Shown here: positions 4,487-52,774 of the stretch, piece by piece
Position numbering within the stretch: position 1 is the stretch's first letter
How the letters are laid out: each line of letters begins with the position of its first letter
IMG/VR virus record: IMGVR_UViG_3300020472_000032
Span: 1-55,457 of that record
Length of the DNA stretch: 55,457 nt
Direction: 5' to 3' (one strand)
Origin: a virus
Lineage: Duplodnaviria > Caudoviricetes
The notes under the pieces: generated by a model
Seen by the model: the letters and a program-made list of their open reading frames with translations, nothing else
Told to the model about the DNA's origin: nothing
Database searches by the model: none
Position numbers and translations under genes: made by a program

Positions 4487-5043
4487 CCTTCACAAAGCAA
4501 ATTCATATGTACAACTACACTTAATGCATAAGCCATTGCATGAGCCTTCTTAAAGTAATAATTATCGTTTTCTGGTTTTATCCACACTTGGCTCATTATC
4601 GTTTGCCACGTCTGTGTTGCTAGATGTCTTTTTGCTGGCCGAATTATCGCTAGTACTGCCGCTAATTGTTCTACCGATGTGGGCTTCAATTGTTTCAATA
4701 GTTTGTCGTGTCCGCTTACGTGAAAGACTTGATCTACAAAGTCTTTGTGCTCCAGTAGTTCCCATAGTGGCTCCTTATCCATTAATTCAAATAAATGTTC
4801 TTCATTTTTAACGTTTTTATAAATGCTAACATTCAAACAATCTATTTTAAAATAGCCCATATCCTCTGCTGTTTTATAATCTATTGTGCTTAATCCTGTA
4901 ATTGGATCTTGTGGCATTTCATGAAAGTATACACCTGTGTTATGCTTTTTGCCAGGTTCTATACTTGCAGTAACATAAGGAAATTGATCTAATGCTTTTT
5001 GTCTATCAGCAAAGTCAATATCGATATCTGTATTAGCAATCAT
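4483..5043 (-). CDS. miniature DNA polymerase III alpha (C-family/DnaE)-like catalytic protein
   Basis: DIDIDF (DnaE PDxDxDF), KHNTGVY (KHAGGVV), GYFKIDCL (GLLKFDFL), LAIIRP (ALYRPG), FKKAHAMAY (FNKSHSAAY), all in 186 aa. Confidence 0.85.
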   Translation of the reverse strand: MIANTDIDIDFADRQKALDQFPYVTASIEPGKKHNTGVYFHEMPQDPITGLSTIDYKTAEDMGYFKIDCLNVSIYKNVKNEEHLFELMDKEPLWELLEHKDFVDQVFHVSGHDKLLKQLKPTSVEQLAAVLAIIRPAKRHLATQTWQTIMSQVWIKPENDNYYFKKAHAMAYALSVVVHMNLLCEG

Positions 5044-11290: not shown

Positions 11291-11319
11291 ATAATACGAC
11301 AGGGTGCATAAAAGGTCAA
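11291..11319 (-). promoter_or_regulatory. sigma70-type early promoter
   Basis: TTGACC-17 nt-TATTAT with A-rich upstream. Confidence 0.7.
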
Positions 11320-12044
11320 CCTTTTATTTCCTCTATTTTCATATAATTTAACATTGTTTCTTTACAATTAGTGTATTTGCTAATTTCATGTCCTTTAATT
11401 CTAGCATTAATGCTTATTACTTTACCATCCATAACTTTTGTTAGATCTGGATCTTTATTCCAGAAAAACTTAACAATATGTTTATCATCATAAACTGTGG
11501 TTACAATAAAGTTACCAAAGTTTCGTAGATATTTGATATCGATTACCTTTAAATCCATTGATATTCTACCACTTACTTTACCTACATACTCACTAGTACG
11601 TTTATATTTTGACATCATATCTGAAAATTCTTCACGTTTTTGATCAACACCAAAACTTTTAGGTAAACTGGCGGCAACACTAACACCAAATTTATCTACT
11701 GTAGAATTCATTATAAATCCTGCAACTCTATCTTCAAATCCATTTAGTTGATCACTAAGTTTTTTGAAAGTCAAACTCTGTTGAAAATGTTCAGTGATTT
11801 CTTTTGCACGATCACTAATAGTTGGATCAGTTTCAACTAATTTTAAACAAGCCGAAGCATGTTTATCTTTTGCTTGATTATTGTCTAACATAAAACCAAT
11901 AACAGTTTTGTTATCGTGGTGTCTAGTTTCTTTTTCTTGATCATACCAACCATTACCACTGCTAATAAAACCTTGATAATCAGTAACTGCAACGGCATAT
12001 TGCATTACAGTAGTAATATCGTATTGTGCTTTAGGCTTAGCCAT
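11316..12044 (-). CDS. hypothetical early protein with possible C-terminal OB-fold
   Basis: SEYVG...KETMLNY C-terminal pattern; GGAG RBS. Confidence 0.65.
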   Translation of the reverse strand: MAKPKAQYDITTVMQYAVAVTDYQGFISSGNGWYDQEKETRHHDNKTVIGFMLDNNQAKDKHASACLKLVETDPTISDRAKEITEHFQQSLTFKKLSDQLNGFEDRVAGFIMNSTVDKFGVSVAASLPKSFGVDQKREEFSDMMSKYKRTSEYVGKVSGRISMDLKVIDIKYLRNFGNFIVTTVYDDKHIVKFFWNKDPDLTKVMDGKVISINARIKGHEISKYTNCKETMLNYMKIEEIKG

Positions 12045-12453: not shown

Positions 12454-12482
12454 ATAGTAAGACATCTTGCTATAGATGTCAA
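12454..12482 (-). promoter_or_regulatory. sigma70-type early promoter with inverted repeat
   Basis: TTGACA-17 nt-TACTAT; GACATCT-n6-AGATGTC inverted repeat at 12461-12480. Confidence 0.75.
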
Positions 12483-12649
12483 CCTTTTTTTGGAAAAACC
12501 CATTTTACAATAGTAAATGTTGGGTCATTGGTTTTAAAAATTGCGATTGGACCAACTGTTTTGGCCGCTTTTTTTGCTTGTTTCTCTGCATCAGCTAGAG
12601 TTAAACCACTGCGGATAGTTCCTATTTTATCAGAAAACACATCAAACAT
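12479..12649 (-). CDS. small hypothetical protein (56 aa, below ORF-track cutoff)
   Basis: MFDVFSDKIGTIRSGLTLADAEKQAKKAAKTVG...WVFPKKG*; GGAG RBS, TAATG coupling. Confidence 0.65.
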   Translation of the reverse strand: MFDVFSDKIGTIRSGLTLADAEKQAKKAAKTVGPIAIFKTNDPTFTIVKWVFPKKG

Positions 12650-13148: not shown

Positions 13149-13178
13149 TACGACCTCTTTTTGTTAACTTATACTAAT

Positions 13179-13207
13179 AGTATAAGACATCTTGGTGTAA
13201 TGGTCAA
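13179..13207 (-). promoter_or_regulatory. sigma70-type early promoter
   Basis: TTGACC-17 nt-TATACT; shares a 12-bp spacer motif with the 12454-12482 promoter. Confidence 0.75.
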
Positions 13208-13216
13208 CCTCTTTTT

Positions 13217-36614: not shown

Positions 36615-39600
36615 TTATTTCTCGCTACTATTAGTTATAAGAGAACTTACTTGTTCTGTCAAGCGATTTATTTGTTCTTGTTGTTCTTTCATACCCTCTA
36701 TTAATAATGCTGTTAACTTTTGGTAATCAACTGCTTTAGTTCCATCTGTTCTATCTTTTACAACTTCTGGTAATACTGCTTCTACTTCCTGAGCAATAAC
36801 ACCAATGTCATGTTTTTGCACAAAGTAACCATCTTCACCACCACGCTTTGCAATATGTTCATCAGTCCAATCAAACATTACACCACGTATAGCATTAATT
36901 TTTCCTAGTGGATCTGCAATTACTTCTATGTTTTCTTTTAAATTTCTATCAGATGAATAAAATGCTGTAACATCACCTTCTGCTCTAACTTCATTATCAG
37001 CTATTGCACCAGTAAGAGAACCAATGTATATACCTTTAGTTATGTTCATACCATAATGGTCCATTCTAACAGTTTCTGCATTGTTGCCTGAAGCGTCATC
37101 AGTAAAGAAACAATGTCGTCCGCTGTTTTCTTGGTTATTATAATAAAAATGTCCATCTTCCCAATATGCAATAAATCCACCATCGCCTGCGGTGTGTCCC
37201 ATATCTTCGTTTGTAAACTTAATTTGTGAACCGTCACCAGCAGTAGGTTGATATAAATGCAATGTAGCAAGACTATAGTTTGGATCTGAAGGAACAGGAG
37301 TTCCGCCTATTCCAACATTACCTGCACTATCTATTCGCATACGTTCAGTTCCAGCAGTTGAAAATGCTATAGTATCTGCGACACCAGAAGGTTGAAACAT
37401 TCCAGTATTTAAATCACCATTAAAGGTATACCCTGGACTTCCTGCTGTTCGCCCATCATTTGTTGTACCTTGAATTACAGGAGCGTGGCTATTTCCATTA
37501 CCTACTCGTAAATCACCATTTGTCTGAAGCCTCATACATGAAGTTAAAGTACCACTGGTATTTGCAGTTTGAAAATCTATATAACCGCCATGGGCTGAAT
37601 TTGTAGTTTGAGAAAGATCAAGCCTGGCCATGTCGCCTTGACTGCTTGTACCTGTAATTCTACCTCCTGCTGAAACCTGATTTAACTTTTGATGACTTGT
37701 AATATGACCATTAGCGTCGAGTGTTGTTGTGCCACCGGCTTGATCTGAGATTATAATTCCAGAAACAGTAACACCAGTAGATTTAGTTGCTAATTTCTGT
37801 GTACCATAATGAGATAATACAACTTCACCAGTTGAGCCGTCAGCCACAACATAGTTTGCAGTACCACCACTGCCATCGTCTGATTGAAGAGTTACATCTT
37901 TATCATCGGCTGTGTTAATTATATGAAGATTACCTGTGCCCTCAGTAATAGTAGCATCGGTACCAGTATGTTTAATTTCTAGATCAGCATCTGAACCAAA
38001 TGTTGCTTTAGCATTATCGCCCCACTCCATTGCGTCATCTGATTTGTCCCAAACTACATTATAGTTGTCGCCTGTAAATGTTACATCACCTGAGAATGAA
38101 CCTCCAGTATCGCTAACAAAGTTACCAAGTTGACTGGTAAGTGCCACAGTACCTGTTGAGTCTGGTAATGTAATTGTGTTGTTTGCTGTTGGATCTGTTG
38201 CTGTTAACAGCGTGTCATTACCATTGTCGGTTGAACCTTCAAAGTAAACACCAGTTGATCCTGATACTTGAAATGAAGATGCTATTGCTTGTCCTGACAC
38301 AGTAAGATTATTACTGCTTGGATTGTATGCCAATCCAGCGTCTGTGTACACTTGGTTAACTGCCATCGATGAATCATCACTGTCAACAATGCTTACATAA
38401 TGAGCGGCATCTATGGCGCCTCTTTGTATTGTGTGTATAGTTTGTGCTTCTGCGGCCGTTGATGCTGAACCTGTTACGTTACCTGTAAGAGCACCTTCAA
38501 ACGTTGTAGCAACTAATGTACCTAAACTAAAACTTCCATCTGATGTGTTAACATTTCCTGTTAATGCAGGATCATATTCATCAAATACTTTCCATTTTTG
38601 ATCTGTAACATCAAAGAATAAACCAACTTGTGTAAATCCTACACCAGACGCACCTGTGTTTCTAAATCCAACTACACCTACGTCTATGTTAGCTGGTGCG
38701 GCAACACCGTTCCATATATCATTGCTTGTATGTCCTGATGTTGCATTAAATTTAACTTTGATACCACTATCTAGTGTTTGTTCATTTCCAGTAATGCTTA
38801 CACCAGTTGCTTCTGTAGATGAAAAGTTATCTTTACTCCAACTAAATGTATCTGGAGAACCTGTACCATCAATTTTTACATAATATGTTGTACTTGCTGT
38901 GCCTTCAAACAATCCATGGAATGTTACGTCATTTAGTCCACTGCCTGAAAAGTTAACTGTACCAATACTATCTCCTGATCCTAGGAAAATATAAGGATCT
39001 TCAACGTTCAACGAGTTAACATCTGTACTAGCACTAGTACCCAAAATAGTTAAATTACCACCAATAACAACATCACCATCAAATCGTGCATCGCCTGTTG
39101 TTCTAAAACTCGCCGCCATATTGTTGATCATATCAACATATACAACACCTGTACTTGCATGTGATTTAGTTGTTTTACAAACTTCAACACTAAAGTTAGG
39201 ATATGTTGGTGAAGTTGCTGTCAAACTACCTGCACTATCAACATACAACGGAGCACCAACACTAAATGAACTGGTATCTAAGTTAAAATACAAACCTTGT
39301 ATCATAACATAACCATAACCTGTGTTAGCAATACTACCAAATGTTAAACCTATTGTGTGTTGTACATCAGTTGAACTTTTATCAGAAAGTGAAACTTTCA
39401 TACCACCAGCTGTGAGTCCACCACTGTATCGCACAGCCTTACCGGCACCAATTGTTGCACCTGTATCGTTATAAACATATTGGAATGTGTTCTGTCCAAT
39501 TCTAATAATCTGTGATTGATCGCCTGTGTAGTATGCTAGAGCATCAAAGTTATTTTCGTAAAATATTCTGCCTTCGGCGGCACTACCAGGAGTGCCTGCA

Positions 39601-41018
39601 CCGGTGTCAATATCCATATAATCAACACCATCTATGTAACCCTGTGCCTTAATATTATCTGTATGTGTGTTTAACCAACGCAATGAAGCTGAACCAAGTT
39701 CCCTTGTGCCGTCATTGTCGGGTAAAATACTACTATCAACCTTAGCTGTTATAGTAAGTGTATCTGTGTTTGCATCACCAATGTCTATATTACCATTAAG
39801 TGTACTTGCACCAGCTACAGTTAGTCCACCACCTATATGAACATTTTCAGCAATACCTACACCACCATCTACAATAAGAGCACCTGTAGTTGTACTAGAA
39901 CTTGTAGTTGTAGCATTTAGGTTTACTGCACTTGTAACATCAAGTGTACCTGCAATAACTGTATTACCAGTTGAGGCCGCTATAGTTACTTTGTTTAAAC
40001 TATCACCATATGTGATATCACCAGTAGCACCTATTGTCATTCTTACTGTACCAGCAGTTTTAAAATCTAATTCATCATTGTCTGCACCTGCACTATCTTC
40101 TGCTAAAATAGTTGTGTCGCCATCTCCGTCTTTAACTCCGCCTAATGAGCCCCATGCTGATCCATCATAACCTTCAAATGAACTATCATCTGTGTTATAA
40201 CGTAATTGTCCTTGAACGGCAGTTGGTCTTTGTGCAGTACTACCAACTGGAATTTGCACAGAACCAGTTGTTGCAATAGTCATGTTAGTGCCATCAAATG
40301 TAAAATTTGCATCATCTTCTAATAAACCAGATGTGCCTGCAATCGTGATTCTATTATCTGTTAAATCAGACAATGTCATATTTTTAAATTTAGCACCACC
40401 TAATGTACCTGATATTACTTCACTAGTATTAGATGCTTGAGGGATATAAGCAAATTTACTATCAGTATCGTCCATTCCAAAGAAGCCAATTCTAGCACTA
40501 CTACCATCATGCCAACGATATTCAACACCTCTATCTTTGTTGTCATCAGATCCCGGTGCAGTATCACCACCTAATGTAATAATAGGATCATCTACTGTCA
40601 TTGTAGTACTATTAACAGTACTAGTTGTTCCATTAACTGTTAAGTTACCTGTAATAGTAACATCATTTGGCAAACCTACTGTAAGAGTACCACTTGATTC
40701 TCCTACTTCTACTTCGTTTGCAGTACCTTGTACTGTAAGTGTTCCTCCACCTGCTATAGCAGATGAATTAGAACCATCAGTTACTGTAAATGCTGTTGGT
40801 AAATTTGTAATAGTTTGTCCACCAAAGTCGACTGCTTTGTTAAAAACAATTTTTTCTGCACTATTACTTGTGTCAAATGTAAGATAGGCTGTACTGCCTT
40901 CTTTAATTACTAAAGCTGTTGCCGAAGCATCCTTTAGTACTATCTCACTATCATTACCTGCTGAATTTTCTACTGTAAGGCCATTTTTGACCTTAAAATT
41001 ATGTTGATAAGTTGCCAT
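36615..41018 (-). CDS. long tail fibre/spike protein with C-terminal intramolecular chaperone (peptidase S74)
   Basis: 1467 aa, Gly/Thr/Ser-rich repeats; YSSDRNLKENI...IGVIAQEVE..LPEVV..VDYQKL..LLIEGMKE coiled coil. Confidence 0.9.
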   Translation of the reverse strand: MATYQHNFKVKNGLTVENSAGNDSEIVLKDASATALVIKEGSTAYLTFDTSNSAEKIVFNKAVDFGGQTITNLPTAFTVTDGSNSSAIAGGGTLTVQGTANEVEVGESSGTLTVGLPNDVTITGNLTVNGTTSTVNSTTMTVDDPIITLGGDTAPGSDDNKDRGVEYRWHDGSSARIGFFGMDDTDSKFAYIPQASNTSEVISGTLGGAKFKNMTLSDLTDNRITIAGTSGLLEDDANFTFDGTNMTIATTGSVQIPVGSTAQRPTAVQGQLRYNTDDSSFEGYDGSAWGSLGGVKDGDGDTTILAEDSAGADNDELDFKTAGTVRMTIGATGDITYGDSLNKVTIAASTGNTVIAGTLDVTSAVNLNATTTSSSTTTGALIVDGGVGIAENVHIGGGLTVAGASTLNGNIDIGDANTDTLTITAKVDSSILPDNDGTRELGSASLRWLNTHTDNIKAQGYIDGVDYMDIDTGAGTPGSAAEGRIFYENNFDALAYYTGDQSQIIRIGQNTFQYVYNDTGATIGAGKAVRYSGGLTAGGMKVSLSDKSSTDVQHTIGLTFGSIANTGYGYVMIQGLYFNLDTSSFSVGAPLYVDSAGSLTATSPTYPNFSVEVCKTTKSHASTGVVYVDMINNMAASFRTTGDARFDGDVVIGGNLTILGTSASTDVNSLNVEDPYIFLGSGDSIGTVNFSGSGLNDVTFHGLFEGTASTTYYVKIDGTGSPDTFSWSKDNFSSTEATGVSITGNEQTLDSGIKVKFNATSGHTSNDIWNGVAAPANIDVGVVGFRNTGASGVGFTQVGLFFDVTDQKWKVFDEYDPALTGNVNTSDGSFSLGTLVATTFEGALTGNVTGSASTAAEAQTIHTIQRGAIDAAHYVSIVDSDDSSMAVNQVYTDAGLAYNPSSNNLTVSGQAIASSFQVSGSTGVYFEGSTDNGNDTLLTATDPTANNTITLPDSTGTVALTSQLGNFVSDTGGSFSGDVTFTGDNYNVVWDKSDDAMEWGDNAKATFGSDADLEIKHTGTDATITEGTGNLHIINTADDKDVTLQSDDGSGGTANYVVADGSTGEVVLSHYGTQKLATKSTGVTVSGIIISDQAGGTTTLDANGHITSHQKLNQVSAGGRITGTSSQGDMARLDLSQTTNSAHGGYIDFQTANTSGTLTSCMRLQTNGDLRVGNGNSHAPVIQGTTNDGRTAGSPGYTFNGDLNTGMFQPSGVADTIAFSTAGTERMRIDSAGNVGIGGTPVPSDPNYSLATLHLYQPTAGDGSQIKFTNEDMGHTAGDGGFIAYWEDGHFYYNNQENSGRHCFFTDDASGNNAETVRMDHYGMNITKGIYIGSLTGAIADNEVRAEGDVTAFYSSDRNLKENIEVIADPLGKINAIRGVMFDWTDEHIAKRGGEDGYFVQKHDIGVIAQEVEAVLPEVVKDRTDGTKAVDYQKLTALLIEGMKEQQEQINRLTEQVSSLITNSSEK

Positions 41019-41077: not shown

Positions 41078-43264
41078 TTAGATTAAGTGTTTCTCAGCTA
41101 TGAATCTGTAATTCATATTGTTAGATGTTGCAGGAGTTAGACGTAATCTAACATTTCCACCATTAATATCAGCTGATACTGTGAACTGAACTTCGTCACT
41201 TTGAAGAGATCCGTATGTTGTTTGATAAACATCAGTTCCGTTATGTAATACTAAAATTTGTGTTATGTGAAATTTAGTTGCAGTAGTATTTTCACATGAT
41301 ATAAAATACTTTGCACTTCTATATGTTGCTATAGGCCAACTATCTACAGAAAATTGAGCTGTTGATGAACTAGTTGCTGTACTTGCATGACTATGATATG
41401 CATTATGCATGTGTATATTGTTTGTAAAAACAGTACCAAGTTGATCGCTTGATGATCCTAAATCAATTCCGCCTTGACCGCTAACAACTAATGTACCAGT
41501 TGCATCAGGAAATGATATAGTTCTATCTGCTGTAGGTGTTGTTGGCTGAACTACTAAACTATGAGAACCACCCCAAGTATCATAACGTAATACTTGATCT
41601 GCAGAAAGTGTAAAATTATGATTATCAAATACATATGATAAAGTTTCTGATCCACCTTTTTGTAAATGTATTTCGACTCTACCATCTTCACTACTGTCAG
41701 AGTCATCTATAATCCTACCAACTATTTTACCATAATTTTTATTAGCAGAAGCATCATTTTTTCCTCTAAAAGTTATATGACCTAAATAATCTAATCCAGC
41801 CGGACTAGCAGAATCTCTAGCTAATACTATACTAGGCCCCGCAGTAGAACCAGCATCAGCAGAAGTTAATGTAATATCTCCTGTAACCTGAATATTACCA
41901 GGACCATTAATATTATTACTATTGAGATCTAAGTTACCGCCCAATTGAGGAGTTGAATCATTTACTACTTCAGCAACTACTACTGACCATTCTAATGCAT
42001 TTCCAGCACTATTTGACCTTAAATATTTAAGAGGATCAAAATCACCTGGACCATCTGTTAATTCTACAAATGTAGTTGTAGTAAAGTTAGTCCATGCACT
42101 ACCAATATAACCTTCAAATTCATTGCTGTTTGTATTATAACGGATCATGCCTACTTCTGGCGAACCAGGTCTTTGTGCATTACTACCACCTGGTAGTTTT
42201 AAAGTACCAGTAGTATCTATTGTCATGTTAGTGCCATCAAACCCAAATGATGAATTAGTAGTTAACCTACCACTTGAACCAGCATAAACAATTTTATTAT
42301 TAGCTAAATCACCTACTTCTAATTCAGTAAATGTACCTCTGCCTTGTGATGTTAAATTACCAGTAAGCGAAGTAATACCTTTAACAGTTAAATTATCTTC
42401 TGCTTCTAATTCACCTAGGTGTACTTTGATATAATCTACAATGTTTACATTACCAGAAGTTTGTCCATCTTCTGTAGGACATGAAATAAAAGCAACTTCA
42501 TCTTCGCTTTCGTCATATATGGCACCTACGTTATTTGTGTTTGTAGATGTGCCATCACCTCTAGTAACAATAAACCCTTGGTCGACTGTTTGTGTTGTAG
42601 TGCCTTCGCCTAATTTAATGAGTGCTTGGTTAATAGATGTACTAACAAGTTGTGTTTGAGTACCACTTACTTGAAAGTTTCCTGTCATAGTAACTGTACC
42701 ACCAACGTTCATGTCTCCACCAACGTTTAATGCACCGCCAACACCAGCACCTCCAGATACAACCAATGCACCTGTAGAAGTACTAGAACTTGCAGTACTG
42801 TCATTGATATCAACTCTTGCATCAAAATCTGCAATACCACCTACCAGCACAGTAGAATCAAGTGTTACTGCACCTGATGCTTTTAAAGTTCCGCCTATAT
42901 CTAATAATTTTGTTGGAACAGCTAAACCAATTCCAACATTACCATCAGAATGGATAATCATACGTTGAGTATTAGCAGTATAAAAATCTATTTGATCGTT
43001 GTCTGCTCCGTCAGCGTCTTCAACTTGAATATATGTATCTAAATCTATATCTTGTACTAAGGTAGTAAATGTTTTCCAATTGGAACCATTGTGTCCTTCA
43101 AATCTAGATGTTGTTGAATTAAATCTTATATCACCAGCACTAGGTGAGCCTGGTCTGTTAGCTGTAGTTCCTGAAGGAAGATTTAACGAACCGGTTATAT
43201 CTAGCTTCAATTCATTTGATTGAGTTAATATCAGATTTTGTTGGTGATCTAATTTAATTGCCAT
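41078..43264 (-). CDS. fibre-like virion structural protein
   Basis: Two RP..G.IR(F/Y)N..FEG..W modules; TPQLGGNLDLN; C-terminal YRSAKY..HNG..YG domain. Confidence 0.75.
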   Translation of the reverse strand: MAIKLDHQQNLILTQSNELKLDITGSLNLPSGTTANRPGSPSAGDIRFNSTTSRFEGHNGSNWKTFTTLVQDIDLDTYIQVEDADGADNDQIDFYTANTQRMIIHSDGNVGIGLAVPTKLLDIGGTLKASGAVTLDSTVLVGGIADFDARVDINDSTASSSTSTGALVVSGGAGVGGALNVGGDMNVGGTVTMTGNFQVSGTQTQLVSTSINQALIKLGEGTTTQTVDQGFIVTRGDGTSTNTNNVGAIYDESEDEVAFISCPTEDGQTSGNVNIVDYIKVHLGELEAEDNLTVKGITSLTGNLTSQGRGTFTELEVGDLANNKIVYAGSSGRLTTNSSFGFDGTNMTIDTTGTLKLPGGSNAQRPGSPEVGMIRYNTNSNEFEGYIGSAWTNFTTTTFVELTDGPGDFDPLKYLRSNSAGNALEWSVVVAEVVNDSTPQLGGNLDLNSNNINGPGNIQVTGDITLTSADAGSTAGPSIVLARDSASPAGLDYLGHITFRGKNDASANKNYGKIVGRIIDDSDSSEDGRVEIHLQKGGSETLSYVFDNHNFTLSADQVLRYDTWGGSHSLVVQPTTPTADRTISFPDATGTLVVSGQGGIDLGSSSDQLGTVFTNNIHMHNAYHSHASTATSSSTAQFSVDSWPIATYRSAKYFISCENTTATKFHITQILVLHNGTDVYQTTYGSLQSDEVQFTVSADINGGNVRLRLTPATSNNMNYRFIAEKHLI

Positions 43265-43296: not shown

Positions 43297-44206
43297 CGTT
43301 TACTGTCTGGCGAATGATCTTCAGTGTAGCACTAGTGGCCGCGGCCATTGTAACTTTAAGTTCAACGTTTGCTCCATTAACAGCGGCAGTAAATGTACCT
43401 AGTGTACCGCCACTAACCAATGTACCGTATTGTGTAATATAGGAATTTGTACCATCATGTCCTACCATTACTTTACTACTTTGAAAGTCTGTACCTTGTG
43501 AAATAGATATAAAATATTCACTAGCTCTAAAACTTGCTTTAGCAAATGTATCTAGTACAGTTAATGATGTAGAGGCTATGGTTGCTCCAGCACTTGTAAT
43601 ATGACTATCATTAGCACCACTACCACTTATTTTATAAGTTGGTGTAATTAATGATGTAGTAACTGTAACATCAGCTGGTAAACCAACTGTTACTGTATCT
43701 GTTGCACCTACAACAACTTCAACTTCATTAGTAGTTCCATTAAATGTTAACGAATCAGTTGCTAATGCTACAGCTTGTGTATTAGAAGCACCGTCAACAA
43801 TATTTAATGTAGAAGAGGAGCCAGTATCAACATAATTTTTAGTTGCGGCATCTTGAGCCGCAGTAGGATCGCCTAAGTTTTCTATTTTGCCTGTGCCTAG
43901 GTCTGCACTTTTTAACCATGCTTTGCTCCAAGTTGCACCTGTTGTTCCCAATGAATATGTGTTATCACCATTTGGTCTAATATTAGAACCTATGTCCGCG
44001 GCAAGATTAAGTGTGTCTGTGTCAGCATCACCTAAACTAAGTGTACCACCGTCTGCTGTAATATTACCTTTAACATATAATGCTTTTTCTACTAGAACTC
44101 CACCTTTGAGTTGTAAAGCACCTGTAGACACAGTTGAATCTGTTGTATCTTCGACTACTGTAATTGTTGCTCCACTACCTGAAGCTGTTTTTCTGAAACT
44201 TGGCAT
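43292..44206 (-). CDS. fibre-like virion structural protein
   Basis: PT..QDAATKNYVD fibre repeat; C-terminal domain paralogous to that of 41078-43264. Confidence 0.7.
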   Translation of the reverse strand: MPSFRKTASGSGATITVVEDTTDSTVSTGALQLKGGVLVEKALYVKGNITADGGTLSLGDADTDTLNLAADIGSNIRPNGDNTYSLGTTGATWSKAWLKSADLGTGKIENLGDPTAAQDAATKNYVDTGSSSTLNIVDGASNTQAVALATDSLTFNGTTNEVEVVVGATDTVTVGLPADVTVTTSLITPTYKISGSGANDSHITSAGATIASTSLTVLDTFAKASFRASEYFISISQGTDFQSSKVMVGHDGTNSYITQYGTLVSGGTLGTFTAAVNGANVELKVTMAAATSATLKIIRQTVNV

Positions 44207-44235
44207 TGCATTCTCCTACTAAGAGTATTTAGCCA

Positions 44236-44261
44236 AAAAGGAAGACGCCAAAGGCGCCTTC
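44236..44261 (-). terminator. intrinsic terminator ending the ncRNA
   Basis: GAAGGCGCC-ttt-GGCGTCTTC followed by CTTTTT. Confidence 0.75.
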
Positions 44262-44284
44262 GCAAATTTAATAATTGGAGTTAT

Positions 44285-44493
44285 TAAGTGAGTAGGGAGG
44301 ATTCGGGTATACCTCCAAACCGTCGACCGAGATACCATTCTCAAAGCCAGGTAGCCTAGTTCCGCTCGGGAGAGCGATGTGATACAACGCATTTCTGCAA
44401 CCATACCTGGGTACCACCCCTAACTAGCCAAGTTACACACTCTGGTAAATGTGCGTTTCCTTGCACTACTCTAACAAGACCGTCGCCTTATTA
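44285..44493 (-). ncRNA. structured non-coding RNA of about 200 nt (resembles the manA RNA motif class; unverified)
   Basis: GC-rich intergenic island with closing helix GAGTAG/CTACTC, several hairpins and a pseudoknot; own sigma70 promoter and terminator. Confidence 0.75.
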
Positions 44494-44499
44494 ATACTT

Positions 44500-44528
44500 A
44501 ATATAATACTTCTTTCCCCAGAAGTCAA
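44500..44528 (-). promoter_or_regulatory. sigma70 promoter of the ncRNA
   Basis: TTGACT-17 nt-TATATT with A-tract upstream. Confidence 0.75.
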
Positions 44529-44548
44529 CCTTTTTTTGCATCTTTTTC

Positions 44549-44581
44549 AAAAAAAAATGGGCCACCAAAGTGACCCATTTT
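44549..44581 (-). terminator. intrinsic terminator of major capsid gene
   Basis: ATGGGTCAC-tttg-GTGGCCCAT followed by a long T-run. Confidence 0.85.
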
Positions 44582-44601: not shown

Positions 44602-45759
44602 TTATGTAAAGCTAAGGTTACCGCTGTTGATTGTAATACCTTCAACATAGTCTGCCGCATTACCGAGCGATGAAGCTTGGTTGGACAATTCAGTGTAACC
44701 GTATCGTGTCATAAATGAAACTACTGGTTCGAATGTTGATGGATCCATAACAACGCCACTGCTCATTAATGGAATATATGGGCAGTAGTAAGCTGGTGCG
44801 TCCATTTCGCCTGAGCCTTTGTAGCCTACCAATGCAACAGTACCGTCTGATGCATACTGGTCTGCGTACACTCTCATTGTACCATTCAATGTACCAACAA
44901 ATTTAGTGTTAGTTGGTGCTTCGAAAGGTCCTTCAGTTGTTCTTGCGAAGGCTGAAGTTGTAGCTGACTGAAGAACAGTAAGCATTGCTGGTGATACTAC
45001 CAAGTAGTTACCTGCGCCTCTTCTTGTTCTTGCGGCGATCAAGTTAGCGGCTCTATTTACTAGAACTGCAAATGCGGCATGCTCGTCACCAACAAATGTA
45101 GCAGTACCGGATACGCCGGCCTGGTTATATGTTAATGAAGGTGTACCTGCCAAGCTTCTAAGAGAAGCAAGGATTTCTTGGTCGATTTCAGCAGTAATTT
45201 CTTGGGCTAGTGCCGCCATAACTTCTGCTTCTACGTCGAGGCCGTGCATAGAATTTGCATCTTGAGCGGCTTCAAAAGTCCATCGAGCTGATAGCTTTCT
45301 GGTTTTTGCTTCGACTGTTTGCTTTAGTACCTGGATGCTTAACTTTTTACCAGCAGTAGCTTCAAGAGTTGAAGTTGCGTCTGCGGCGTTAGTTGTTGCA
45401 TTACCAGAATATCCAGTAGCAATTGAGAATGGGCTTAGTGCCTCATCACCTGAAGTAGCTGAGTCAAATGTTTCAGCATATCTTACTCTAAGTGTGTGGA
45501 TTTGACCCACTGGGCCTGTCATAGGCTGAACACCAACTAGCTCGTTAGCGATAACTGTTGGCATAACACGTCTGATGACTGGAAGGATAACTTTATTTAA
45601 AGTTGCAATGTTACCGGCCATTGTAGTGCCAGCAGATGCAGTCTCTGTCAAATAGCTTTTAGTATTCTCTAGAGTTTGCTCCATAACAACTTTTTTGTTA
45701 CCTTCAAGTCCGTCGGTCAGTGCAGTTTTGGTTTCATTCCAATTTTCTGTTAGGTTCAT
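44602..45759 (-). CDS. 23: major capsid protein (T4 gp23-like)
   Basis: IRRVMP..IANELVGVQPMTGP, VEAKTRKLSARWT.EAAQD, EITAEID.EI, YCPYIPL, MTRYG. Confidence 0.97.
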   Translation of the reverse strand: MNLTENWNETKTALTDGLEGNKKVVMEQTLENTKSYLTETASAGTTMAGNIATLNKVILPVIRRVMPTVIANELVGVQPMTGPVGQIHTLRVRYAETFDSATSGDEALSPFSIATGYSGNATTNAADATSTLEATAGKKLSIQVLKQTVEAKTRKLSARWTFEAAQDANSMHGLDVEAEVMAALAQEITAEIDQEILASLRSLAGTPSLTYNQAGVSGTATFVGDEHAAFAVLVNRAANLIAARTRRGAGNYLVVSPAMLTVLQSATTSAFARTTEGPFEAPTNTKFVGTLNGTMRVYADQYASDGTVALVGYKGSGEMDAPAYYCPYIPLMSSGVVMDPSTFEPVVSFMTRYGYTELSNQASSLGNAADYVEGITINSGNLSFT

Positions 45760-45774
45760 TGGATTCACTCCTAA

Positions 45775-48759: not shown

Positions 48760-50439
48760 CTACGTAAGACCGGTGTCAGAATCGGGGTTTTCGCCACCAC
48801 CTAGTGGTGAATCGTCTCCAGTTCCTACATCATCTATGTCTGCATCTGGTGCTATATCTACTGCGGTATCTGTATTAAGCTCTTCTGGTCGCATACCAAC
48901 TGCACTTAATCCACTACTTGTATTACTGCTTTGATTAAGTTCATCAATAGTACCCATTTCTTCTTTCCACATTCTTTCGTTTTCAATGATCTCGTCTTCA
49001 TTGAGTCCAAGATACTTGCTTAATATAAAACGTCTACTTAGATAAGGAACACCTTCAAGATTGTTAAACAATCCAGAACGTTGTGTATCTAGTTCAATGC
49101 TTCTATAATCACTGAAGCTCTGTGGTTCTAAGAAACGCACTTCAAATGTTTGTGCTGGTACTTCAATGCCTTTATGTTTACAGTACATTTTAAATTCTTT
49201 GTCAAATACATCCTGCATGATGTTTTGTAATCGTAAACAATACCTATTGAATCTGTATTCCTGAATAAATGCTGTACCAACTCTGCCATCATTGTATGAG
49301 GAAGTTCCATCATCTGGTCCTGTTGGTAGATAACTGCTAGGCACACGCAATGCTCTAAGCATTTTGTTTGTAAAGTATTTTAAATCATCAATTTGACCTA
49401 GGTTTTCACCGCCTGGTAACACTTCAACTTTAGAACCTCTACCTTCGGCAGTTTGTGCAAAGAAGTAGTCTTCCATAATGGATAATGGATTATAACTGCT
49501 ATCCATAATGTTAGCACCACCACCTGTTTTAGAAGGAATACGTCTTTGATGAATTTCGTTTTTAACTCGCTCAACAAAACTGATTGCTTTGTGTGTTGGC
49601 ATGTCGCCAACGTCTACATAAAACACTCTGCGTTCTGGAGCTCTTTGTACTCTGTATATAATAATAGAATCTTCAAGTAATTCTTTTTGCTTGTATGTTT
49701 TAAAGATAGGATCTAGTATACTGTTACCAAAAGGAAAGTTTGTGTCCATTCCTTCGCTTAATGCAACATGCACAATATGTTCGGCATCAACTGCAAACTC
49801 TTGTATCTGTCCTGAATTGTTTTGAAACACACCACTAGGACCACTCATGCCAGGTGTTTGTCCGCCTTTAGCTAAGTTGTCTATTGTGTTGTAGCTATCT
49901 TTATGTTGTTTAATTTCTGTTGCTACAAGTGTTTGTAAGTTCAAGTCTATATTTTTAAGTATGTACTGCTCAGGTTCCTTGCCCTTACTATCATTTAAAA
50001 TAACTTTAGATACGTCAACTGGATTAGCCCATATAAGTTTATATGTTTCTGGATCACGTATAAAGATTTGATCTCCGTACTTAATAGTGTTTCTGAATAT
50101 TCTAAACAAACGTCTATCAAATTCATTTATATTACACCATTGCCGTAATGCTGTGTTAAGTACGTCTACTTCACTTTCTGTGCTATCTTCTTTATAATTG
50201 ATTTCAAAAGGAAGATTATCATCATCTGTAACTTGTGTACTAAACTCACTAATTGTATCTAATGCGGCATTTATTTCACTATCCATATCCATTGCGTCAT
50301 ATTGCATATAACGCTCAACACGATTAGGGTGGCCGCTGTATAACTCAGGTAGGTAACTTTGCCATCTATTTGCACTAGGAGATGCTTTATCGCTTCCTTT
50401 ACCACCTTGATATACTGTAAAATGTTTTTTCCAACTCAT
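48760..50439 (-). CDS. 20: portal vertex protein (T4 gp20-like)
   Basis: LLEDSIIIYRVQRAPERRVFYVDVG, EDYFF..EGRGSKVEVLPGGENLGQIDD, ALRVPSS. Confidence 0.96.
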   Translation of the reverse strand: MSWKKHFTVYQGGKGSDKASPSANRWQSYLPELYSGHPNRVERYMQYDAMDMDSEINAALDTISEFSTQVTDDDNLPFEINYKEDSTESEVDVLNTALRQWCNINEFDRRLFRIFRNTIKYGDQIFIRDPETYKLIWANPVDVSKVILNDSKGKEPEQYILKNIDLNLQTLVATEIKQHKDSYNTIDNLAKGGQTPGMSGPSGVFQNNSGQIQEFAVDAEHIVHVALSEGMDTNFPFGNSILDPIFKTYKQKELLEDSIIIYRVQRAPERRVFYVDVGDMPTHKAISFVERVKNEIHQRRIPSKTGGGANIMDSSYNPLSIMEDYFFAQTAEGRGSKVEVLPGGENLGQIDDLKYFTNKMLRALRVPSSYLPTGPDDGTSSYNDGRVGTAFIQEYRFNRYCLRLQNIMQDVFDKEFKMYCKHKGIEVPAQTFEVRFLEPQSFSDYRSIELDTQRSGLFNNLEGVPYLSRRFILSKYLGLNEDEIIENERMWKEEMGTIDELNQSSNTSSGLSAVGMRPEELNTDTAVDIAPDADIDDVGTGDDSPLGGGENPDSDTGLT

Positions 50440-50497
50440 ATGATTTTTTCCATAACTGTATCGTTCTATTGTATGTTATTTATGGTAACATGTCAAC

Positions 50498-52774
50498 CTA
50501 AGAATCAAATCCCCTATTTCTCATTTCTGCTTCTTTTACATTTAGATGATTAAATGCATGTATTCTAGATTCATCTACATCATCTCGTATTTCTTTAAGT
50601 AAGGCTATTTGTTCTGTATGTCCTTTTTCACTAATTACACCTATTCTAGTTAATAGATCTGCTTCACTAGTTTTTTCAATATCTAAACCAGCCATAATAT
50701 CACCTAAGTTAGCTTTTCTAATATTATTAACAGCGGTGGTAATTTCATTATTCATATTAGTATTGTCAGCTGGTGTAGTATCATTGTCGCTTCTAGATTG
50801 GTTCCATTTATAAATTCCATAGCCAGCGGCCCCTGCGGCCGCTAATCCAGCTATAGCTAAAAGAACTGGACCAGATATAGTACCTACTAAAGCAGTACCG
50901 GCCGCTATTGTTAAACCTGCACCCACTCTAGCTATTTTTAATCCATTGCGTTTTATACCATTAAAAAGATTTTTCCAAAAATTACCGCCACCAGATTTTG
51001 GTTTACCGCCTGGCTTTGATGATCGATCACCTCCGCCGCCTAATATTACATCCGGGTCTAAAGATCCTCCGCCGCCGTCTCCTCCGCCTTCGGCTTGTTG
51101 CAACATACTCCTTGCACCAAATATAGATGCAATAGTTGCTAATTGAGTAGCAGTAAGACCACCACTAACATCTTCAGAACCTGTCATTGTTTTAATCATT
51201 TCAACAGTTGAATTACCTAAACTTGCAATGCCGGCGGCATCACCTATTTGTAATTTAACATTAGTTCCAGGTATTGTAAATCCTGTAGCGGCAACCTTAG
51301 CCATTGTTCTATTCCACTCAGTTTCAAAATTTCTATATACAGTACCTAATTGTCTAGCACTATCTGTATTTCCTTGAAATATGTCAAGTGCTTCACCTGC
51401 TTGATTGCCGGATCTCTGTAATAGATCTTGCAACATACTTAAACCCGTCATGGCTCCGCCACTAGCTGTTCCTTGATTTAAAGCAATAGCAGACATATCT
51501 CCTCTTTGCATATTGTTCACAATAGAATCTGCAATTCCTGCAAATGCTCCTATATCTCTTTGATTATATGCTTGTATTGCACCAACTATCTGATTACCAC
51601 CTAGAAGTTGATTTAACTCTAGTAATTGTTGTCCGCCATCCATTTTTCTAAGTACAGTTTCTATGTCAAAACCAGTTTGGTTAGCTATATTACCAGCTCT
51701 AGTCAACATTTTGCCTTGTTCACCAAATGTAGCTTCTAACGCATTTGCCGCCGCCCGTTGTGCAGATCTTTCATCGGGAGATAATCCAGCCAAGTAAAAA
51801 CTGGACATAGGATCTAAGTTTTCTGCCATTCGACTTCGTAATAACTCTCTTCTATCTGCACCTGTTATATTTGCCATAGCTGTAGTTTCATATAATAAAG
51901 CATTTAAACCAGTTGATGTACTCTGTAATGCATTATTAATAGTTTCTGTTGATTTCCCCATTTTTTGTTGAGAATCAATATAGTCTAACATAAGAGCATT
52001 AATATCATTAACATTCATACCAAAGTGTCCAAATTGGTCTGTAACCTCTTTAAAACGTCCACTCATACCTGCAAATTCTTTCATGCCTTCATCTACATTA
52101 TCACCTAACATGCCCAGGGCGATACTATTTTGTTCTAGACCAGATGATAAGTGAGATAATCTTAATCCTGCTTCACCGGCGGCAATTCTTAAATCTAGCA
52201 TATTAGTGTATAATCCGCCACCTGCTATAGTTGACATTTTTTGTGCTTCTTGTATAAATGTATCAGCAACACCTAACGCAAAACCTGTTGTGGCCGCGGC
52301 CATGTCAGTAGCACCACCTATTAATGCTTTAGCAACTGAGCCAAACTTATTAGATTTGAAGAAACCCGTCATTCCGGTTATCTGAGATGCTAAGCCACCT
52401 ACACCCATAACTATTGGTAATAGTGTACCTTTTAAAGATGTATTGCCATCTTGCAATGATTTAAAACCAGCCGCCAGCTGTTTAGAATTGGCTTCAAAAT
52501 TCTTTTTTGCTGTAGCTAGTTGTTGAGCTCTATCTCTATCTGCTTTTTTATTGTCTTTTCTATCGTTTGTATTTGCAACCTCATCTTGTTTGTTTGCTAC
52601 CTTTAGATGCTCTTCCATCTTCTTTAAGCCAGCAGACGAGATTTTATTGCCTCGCATTATAGATTTTAATACACCTAGAGATAAACCTGTATGAGTTGCA
52701 ATCTCACGAGCAGTAGCGTCTAACGCAAAATCTGGAATATCTGCCATTCCGTTGTCAAATGTAACTGTTGCCAT
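50498..52774 (-). CDS. tape-measure-like protein (gp29 analogue)
   Basis: About 758 aa, Ala/Gly-rich helical with hydrophobic segments; divergent from gp26; likely start MATVTF at 52774. Confidence 0.6.
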   Translation of the reverse strand: MATVTFDNGMADIPDFALDATAREIATHTGLSLGVLKSIMRGNKISSAGLKKMEEHLKVANKQDEVANTNDRKDNKKADRDRAQQLATAKKNFEANSKQLAAGFKSLQDGNTSLKGTLLPIVMGVGGLASQITGMTGFFKSNKFGSVAKALIGGATDMAAATTGFALGVADTFIQEAQKMSTIAGGGLYTNMLDLRIAAGEAGLRLSHLSSGLEQNSIALGMLGDNVDEGMKEFAGMSGRFKEVTDQFGHFGMNVNDINALMLDYIDSQQKMGKSTETINNALQSTSTGLNALLYETTAMANITGADRRELLRSRMAENLDPMSSFYLAGLSPDERSAQRAAANALEATFGEQGKMLTRAGNIANQTGFDIETVLRKMDGGQQLLELNQLLGGNQIVGAIQAYNQRDIGAFAGIADSIVNNMQRGDMSAIALNQGTASGGAMTGLSMLQDLLQRSGNQAGEALDIFQGNTDSARQLGTVYRNFETEWNRTMAKVAATGFTIPGTNVKLQIGDAAGIASLGNSTVEMIKTMTGSEDVSGGLTATQLATIASIFGARSMLQQAEGGGDGGGGSLDPDVILGGGGDRSSKPGGKPKSGGGNFWKNLFNGIKRNGLKIARVGAGLTIAAGTALVGTISGPVLLAIAGLAAAGAAGYGIYKWNQSRSDNDTTPADNTNMNNEITTAVNNIRKANLGDIMAGLDIEKTSEADLLTRIGVISEKGHTEQIALLKEIRDDVDESRIHAFNHLNVKEAEMRNRGFDS

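Follow-up and report, generated by a model that had tools for sequence, protein, structure and literature searches.

A manA-family RNA of a marine jumbo phage is an independent gene with its own promoter and terminator

The manA motif was described as a riboswitch candidate by Weinberg et al. (2010; PMC2864571), whose account of the motif places it in 5' untranslated regions upstream of diverse genes, marks its pseudoknot as questionable, and records it from marine metagenomes, T4-like cyanophages, and two gamma-proteobacteria. The cis-regulatory label has been kept in Rfam, where the family is RF01745, and is repeated in what a 2023 cyanophage paper says of manA (PMC9964418). The literature found on manA reports no ligand, and no paper linking this RNA to jumbo phages was found.

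A bioRxiv preprint of July 2026 (10.64898/2026.07.01.735769) describes cryo-EM structures in which manA RNAs are seen as pentamers, closed into decamers, into an octamer, or into a 60-subunit icosahedral-like cage. In one RNA described there the intermolecular kissing loops are L5-L7' and L8-L9', and a second RNA uses L5-L7' and L3-L8' plus an L6 GNRA-receptor contact, with assembly observed in vitro when RNA and Mg concentrations were high. RNA-only homo-oligomers are likewise described for GOLLD and ROOL, which are ornate non-coding RNAs (Kretsch et al. 2025; PMC12286853). These are several times longer than the RNA reported here and have unrelated folds, and their models find no match in the DNA analysed. 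GOLLD and ROOL RNAs are frequent in phages, where they are found near tRNA genes.

The RNA reported here is carried by a viral record of IMG/VR, which was analysed over its whole length of 55,457 nucleotides (the window) and is rated 15% complete by CheckV. The capsid protein encoded in the window shares 62-69% identity with its counterparts in Sinorhizobium phage Phosso, Vibrio phage 2.275.O, Pseudomonas phage PA5oct, and Cronobacter phage GAP32, which are jumbo phages with genomes of 285-470 kb, and portal, protease, sheath, and terminase genes are also present. The sequence was found again in marine or seawater metagenomes from about 10 studies. Judged from these matches, the window is a fragment of a marine jumbo phage genome. 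A search of genome collections returned 21 matches, all of them metagenome bins with inconsistent taxonomy, so that no host can be inferred for the phage; host assignment by this route was dropped, as the matches are probably misbinned phage contigs. The RNA lies between the capsid gene and a gene for a tail-fibre-like protein of 304 amino acids (Table 1). Beyond the latter are two very large fibre- or baseplate-like structural proteins of 1467 and 728 amino acids (36615-41018 and 41078-43264, minus strand), the second of which has repeated matches to many PHROGs lacking assigned function.

Table 1. Features of the window and, where a locus is named before the position, of its relatives
Feature	Position	Strand	Basis or remark
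Major capsid protein gene	44602..45768	-	PHROG 138 major head protein, E 2.2e-96; upstream neighbour, outside the RNA unit
Intrinsic terminator of capsid gene, 12-bp stem and T run	44545..44581 (stem 44581-44554)	-	Terminator scan
Sigma70-like promoter GGTTGACT-N17-TATATT, A-rich stretch upstream	44500..44530	-	TTGACT-17-TATATT, 10/12 consensus positions
manA-family RNA core	44286..44493	-	Rfam RF01745, model positions 1-192 of 192
Fifth-helix loop word UGGUA	44412..44416	-	Complementary to UACCA 44443-44447 in third-helix loop
5' word CCAGGTA of proposed pseudoknot (rejected)	44404..44410	-	Partner TACCTGG 44347-44353
Eighth-helix loop word GGUAU	44332..44336	-	Complementary to AUACC 44306-44310 in ninth-helix loop
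Intrinsic terminator of RNA unit, 9-bp stem, 6 G-C pairs, T run	44232..44261 (stem 44261-44241)	-	22 nt past core
TAAATA box, putative T4-late-promoter-like element of next gene	44226..44231	-	Conserved after terminator in relatives
AGGAG ribosome site of 304-aa fibre-like gene	44213-44217	-	Precedes its ATG
Tail-fibre-like protein gene, 304 aa	43292..44206	-	Weak PHROG tail and fibre matches; downstream of RNA unit
Four further GGTTGAC-type promoter sites	11291-11321, 12454-12484, 13177-13209, 50468-50498	-	Pattern search
freshwater-2	L054:4690-4772, L068:4538-4621, L043:4540-4623, L042:4156-4238, L033:5218-5301, L050:4544-4627, L027:3450-3533		Rfam
Glutamine riboswitch aptamers RF01739	L043:3972-4021, L054:4222-4269, L033:4654-4701		47-55 bits; between capsid gene and manA cassette

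The original prediction, made from the letters of this DNA, was of a stand-alone folded RNA resembling the manA motif, and an Rfam scan and covariation among homologues were proposed as checks on it. Both bear out the manA-like fold. The covariance-model scan finds a full-length RF01745 match of 74.5 bits against a gathering cut-off of 55.2 (E = 3.6e-17, far beyond chance), and this is the sole Rfam family above threshold anywhere in the 55-kb window. In an alignment of 27 rows, made up of 26 relatives and the window, the nested manA structure is paired at 71.1% against 57.8% in shuffles, and its covariation score of 0.319 against a shuffled 0.140 is reached by none of 500 shuffles, with scores of 0.085-0.185 when the partners are slid. 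Both-sided changes are seen in 40 of the 51 pairs of the nested structure in these 27 copies. Helices 7, 9, and 10 are only about 44% paired across the 27 copies, which is partly due to misalignment of subgroups that differ in helix length. The unpaired junction nucleotides are highly conserved, forming invariant alignment columns.

The nested helices of the prediction, GAGTAG/CTACTC, GCACATTT/GAGTGTGT, CAAG/CTTG, CGCTC/GAGCG, GAGA/TCTC, GGAGG/CCTCC, and CTAGTT/AACTAG, are present both in the Rfam alignment and in the minimum-free-energy structure predicted for the 262-nt transcript, in which manA fold and terminator hairpin form separately, side by side. The stability of this fold is by itself unremarkable (z = -1.29, with 20 of 200 shuffles folding equally well), and the case for the RNA therefore rests on homology and covariation. 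On these grounds the stretch is a real folded RNA gene and a member of the manA family already described. A second model, R1, was built from the Rfam-detected copies of the relatives together with the window, and gives the window core, which is itself among the source sequences, 175.5 bits. In the reciprocal direction, R1 finds the manA RNAs of cyanophages P-SSM4 and P-SSM2 at 55.6 and 51.4 bits, which the Rfam model scores at 184.1 and 181.6 bits. Covariance models are needed here because sequence similarity is too low for blastn, which found no match to the locus, or to the best-scoring relative (L058), among 50,697 phage records.

The pseudoknot of the original prediction, in which CCAGGTA would pair with TACCTGG, fares differently. 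The two words are complementary in the window, yet across the 27 copies they are 50.0% paired against 49.0% in shuffles, a value that 194 of 500 shuffles reach, and the pairing overlaps and hence competes with family helices 6, 7, and 10. A looser permutation test of duplex energy gives 68/5000, with run length not significant (2012/5000). The pseudoknot was rejected for want of covariation, and the complementarity appears to be due to chance, or at most to a lineage-specific alternative.

An ATG-initiated ORF of 61 codons (44219-44404) overlaps the RNA on the same strand, which would allow a reading in which its 61-amino-acid protein is what the locus encodes and the RNA structure is incidental. 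The ORF has no PHROG match and runs through the terminator, and no counterpart of it is present in 23 homologous copies, where frames, starts, and lengths differ even in the closest relative, L002. The pattern of change in the copies is that of compensatory base pairing. As the ORF is not conserved its translation is unlikely, and the coding reading, which we regard as extremely improbable, was rejected.

The sigma70 promoter that had been predicted at 44528-44500 (minus strand) is found before all 27 copies of the RNA, as GGTTGA[CT]-N17-19 followed by a -10 box that ends 8-17 nt ahead of the first model position, and an A-rich stretch precedes the promoter. It is this conservation that makes the promoter credible, and not the generic promoter scan, which found 3 sites in the window against 7.3 in shuffles and so fewer than chance. 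Transcription would start at about 44493, the first nucleotide of the manA fold and some 7 nt past the promoter, and with the terminator this gives a predicted discrete transcript of about 260 nt. Terminators bracket the RNA on both sides, as had been claimed. There are five promoter sites of the GGTTGAC type in the window (7 pattern matches where 0.87 are expected), and the minus strand carries all of them. Of the four further sites, three stand some 25-30 nt ahead of protein ORFs, one of these being the portal gene (48760-50439), and the site at 12484 precedes two small ORFs. The early expression suggested for the RNA was not borne out, in that the same class of promoter stands directly before the portal gene and promoter type alone therefore gives no timing.

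The TAAATA box ascribed to the downstream gene recurs as NTAAATA behind the terminator in 23 of 24 copies. ATAAATAC is not enriched over the window (5 sites against 5.3 expected) and was therefore rejected as a late-promoter motif for the window as a whole.

Parts of the stretch are found in six metatranscriptome runs, four of which were compared (X15, X16, X19, and X20) as assembled contigs, which carry no ends, strand, or level and may include DNA carry-over. In X16 one 180-nt contig with 0 mismatches covers 44294-44473 only, wholly inside the RNA, and two contigs of related variants in X15 lie over its conserved centre. Contigs of the capsid gene end at 44549 (X15), 44576 (X20), and 44621 (X16), and those of the fibre gene at 44192 (X15) and 44185 (X19). 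None of the assembled contigs in the four runs bridges the manA RNA to either neighbouring gene, and there are none over 44193-44293 and 44474-44548, gaps that prove nothing by themselves. There is here a weak hint that the capsid gene, the RNA, and the fibre gene are three separate transcripts.

It could be argued that the RNA is a riboswitch or attenuator, the manA fold binding a metabolite and tuning read-through of the 44241-44261 terminator into the tail-fibre-like gene. Indeed the order of promoter, complex fold, terminator, and same-strand gene is the classical layout, shared with transcriptional riboswitches, and is in keeping with the original proposal of the family as a 5' UTR element. 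In the window, however, the terminator is self-contained and set off from the fold by a spacer, the two coexist in the minimum-free-energy fold, and there is no overlap of aptamer and terminator. Nor is there anti-terminator complementarity, since 0.90 of shuffled arms pair as well as the 5' arm of the terminator does with the last 60 nt of fold and spacer. Across 21 copies the mean duplex is -8.3 kcal/mol against -7.3 for shuffled arms, and pairing of the arm with the 3' part of the fold exceeds that of shuffled arms in 3 copies at <=0.05 and in 6 at <=0.07, the latter count being somewhat above chance. The position of a 5' leader directly before a gene, which is implied by the Rfam type Cis-reg and is not a criterion of the model, is not that of the RNA in the window, because the terminator, the TAAATA box, and the ribosome site intervene and because the neighbouring genes vary among relatives.

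Relatives were collected through the capsid protein, as the best 80 of 600 matching IMG/VR stretches. Among these 80 the Rfam model finds full-length manA in 19 at E <= 0.001, only 8 of them above the cut-off, while R1 finds it in 26 loci as well as in the window, three of them cut by contig ends. The Rfam model thus misses most of this clade at its cut-off. In the same 26 of the best 80 relatives the RNA is part of a cassette of promoter, RNA, and terminator downstream of the capsid gene, with a G+C-rich terminator-like hairpin and T run after all 24 copies that have downstream sequence. In 21 of these 24 the hairpin comes 5-23 nt past the fold, with a spacer of 4-22 nt between them, the exceptions being L063 (+42, with a nearer hairpin seen by eye), L026 (+155), and L066 (+95). 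In L026 (4627-4810) the manA fold is separated by about 150 nt from the first terminator-like hairpin. In L066 a tRNA-Gly(UCC) at 4487-4561 lies 5 nt past the fold, ahead of the terminator and within the promoter-terminator unit of the RNA, and RNase P processing at this tRNA would release the manA RNA. The capsid gene and the manA cassette are also found on L111 and L112, two contigs of 153 kb and 335 kb in one metagenome bin labelled Neomarinimicrobiota; their manA copies score 161.9 bits each with R1, and these are probably jumbo-phage contigs binned with a bacterium.

The surroundings of the cassette are not constant. Its distance from the capsid stop codon is 94-1001 nt, which is explained in part by glutamine riboswitch aptamers that lie between the two in 3 of the 15 relatives scanned and that are not found in the window. 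At least four different and mutually unrelated genes follow the cassette: a fibre-like one (MPSFR...) in the window, L002, and L003, one for a small MGRPxNK protein in many relatives, one for an MSSHINPDSG protein in two relatives, and one for an MKYCREPF protein in a single relative. L063 carries the entire unit in the opposite orientation, facing the 3' end of the capsid gene, with no gene downstream. Between the TAAATA box and the MGRPxNK gene, 7 of the 15 relatives scanned have a freshwater-2 leader (RF02980, 62-77 bits), which begins just past the conserved GATAAATAC box behind the manA terminator; a literature search on freshwater-2 found only unrelated papers. The space after the capsid gene in relatives bearing this leader is a row of up to three structured RNAs.

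Among the best 80 of 600, 58 relatives are evaluable, in that they either extend 1300 nt or more past the capsid gene or have a match; the cassette is present in 26 of the 58 and absent in 32, and is therefore dispensable. Over the whole length of three large relatives (186-210 kb) no manA is found at the sensitivity of the Rfam model. The variable distance, the varying neighbours, the inversion, and the pattern of presence and absence indicate that the element is accessory and portable. With its own promoter and bracketing terminators, and behaving as a self-contained unit from one relative to the next, the cassette is better accounted for by a free RNA than by a leader of the following gene, in agreement with the stand-alone reading of the original prediction.

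Of five cyanophages scanned with Rfam, P-SSM4 (164829-165014) and P-SSM2 (142837-143034) have one manA copy each, and none is found at this sensitivity in Syn9, S-PM2, or S-RSM4. Both copies start about 7 nt past a perfect TTGACA-N17-TATAAT promoter. No terminator separates the P-SSM2 RNA from an ORF that follows 16 nt further on, whereas in the window a strong terminator comes after the RNA and the next gene is promoted separately. The promoter is therefore a trait shared with the cyanophage copies, and the terminator is what distinguishes the jumbo-phage RNA. The window copy also scores far lower with Rfam than these two (74.5 against 182-184 bits), and its phage has a capsid of the PA5oct/GAP32 type and is not a cyanomyovirus.

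While the arrangement in P-SSM2 and the anti-terminator pairing in a few relatives are in favour of a riboswitch, a fold that tunes the next gene would not be expected where a promoter-like box, and in some relatives a separate Rfam leader, stand between terminator and gene, where the downstream genes have no shared pathway, or where the unit is inverted without a downstream gene or holds a tRNA before the terminator. Together with the absence of a ligand from the manA literature found, these observations make a riboswitch unlikely at this locus, which is instead an independent RNA gene.

The form in which such a free RNA would act can be approached through its loops. Helices are counted 5' to 3' with the 5' hairpin as the first, and are provisionally mapped onto the numbering of the preprint by helix order and by the GNRA loop, since the sixth loop is GNRA in the copies inspected, which fits L6 as described in 10.64898/2026.07.01.735769. 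P-SSM4 and P-SSM2 have the same nine-helix layout as the window, with the GNRA sixth loop and the conserved GURGU fifth loop that is found throughout the window's clade. A likeness of the ninth hairpin to a tRNA T-arm and of the fifth to a D-arm was considered, and ARAGORN finds no tRNA in the window.

Runs of 4 or more contiguous Watson-Crick pairs can join the apical loops of helices eight and nine in 13 of 24 copies, 6 of which reach 5 or more, with 10 different word pairs in use, among them GGUAU/AUACC (window), AGGAU/AUCCU, AAUGAUC/GAUCAUU, and CUGAU/AUCAG. In the window alone the chance value of GGUAU/AUACC is 0.115, and L033, L043, and L034, the closest copies in its subgroup, have just 2 eighth/ninth loop pairs each. 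Over the set, duplexes of the loops with their own partners average -4.41 kcal/mol against -3.09 when permuted, which 2 of 5000 permutations match in a test that ignores the kinship of the sequences. For the fifth loop the partner differs between subgroups. Where this loop is UAGU, the seventh hairpin has ACUA in 9 of 12 copies and ACCA in none; where it is UGGU, the seventh hairpin has ACCA in just 3 of 13 copies, and in the window's subgroup ACCA is found in the third loop in 8 of 8, so that the window has the partner in the third loop and not, as in the cyanophages, in the seventh. A permutation test of fifth-to-seventh pairing, which again ignores kinship, is not significant (1799/5000), and this kissing pair was rejected as a feature of the whole set, holding by word counts in the UAGU subgroup and not in that of the window.

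Such covarying loop words are better explained as RNA-RNA contacts, which on sequence could be either within one molecule or between copies, than by a free monomeric RNA that acts in trans as a sponge for a protein or small molecule, a decoy, a base-pairing regulator, or a ribozyme. The evidence for a stand-alone cassette applies equally to a monomer, and conserved unpaired junction nucleotides are typical of binding pockets and active sites. Against this, no target is suggested by the observations made here, the only experimental data found on the manA family, as given in the preprint, show homo-oligomers, and we consider a purely monomeric function doubtful. The RNA in the window belongs to the same Rfam family as the particles described there, has the GNRA sixth loop, and has complementary loop words of the kissing kind; the RNAs that the preprint describes as tested, however, all come from outside the window's clade, and the loop pairs available in the window RNA (fifth-third and eighth-ninth) match neither of the sets described. 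By analogy with those particles, the manA RNA here most likely works as a homo-oligomer.

The mechanism that we favour is that of a free-standing, self-associating RNA particle, with a probability of roughly 0.55. A host-type, sigma70-like promoter would start transcription at the first nucleotide of the manA fold and a terminator about 22 nt past the fold would yield a discrete RNA of about 260 nt, while the next protein gene would be expressed separately through its own promoter-like box and ribosome site, so that the RNA would act as a free particle and not as a leader. Loop-loop kissing contacts would then build pentamers, and from these decamers or a 60-mer shell, as in the assemblies described in 10.64898/2026.07.01.735769. 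In the subgroup of the window the contacts may be UGGUA/UACCA (fifth-third) and GGUAU/AUACC (eighth-ninth), which would be a rewired version of the published set. In the infected cell the assembly might, for example, sequester a host factor or a small molecule, or act as a scaffold.

A more speculative proposal, and one that we hold to be improbable as it stands, is that this jumbo-phage lineage makes abundant free manA RNA which closes into RNA-only shells in the infected cell that enclose or display some component of host or phage, the pentamer contacts having been rewired by exchange of the fifth loop's partner in the seventh loop for one in the third. The clade is a divergent natural series with varied loop words, in which the contacts that drive assembly could be tested. 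Since 2010 manA has been carried as a cis-regulatory riboswitch candidate without a ligand; here, in the window and 26 relatives, it is seen as a portable cassette that is independent of the surrounding genes, which is the genomic signature that would be expected if the cages described from in vitro assembly in 2026 are the functional form. Should RNA shells form in the infected cell, this would be the first biological role for a natural RNA cage.
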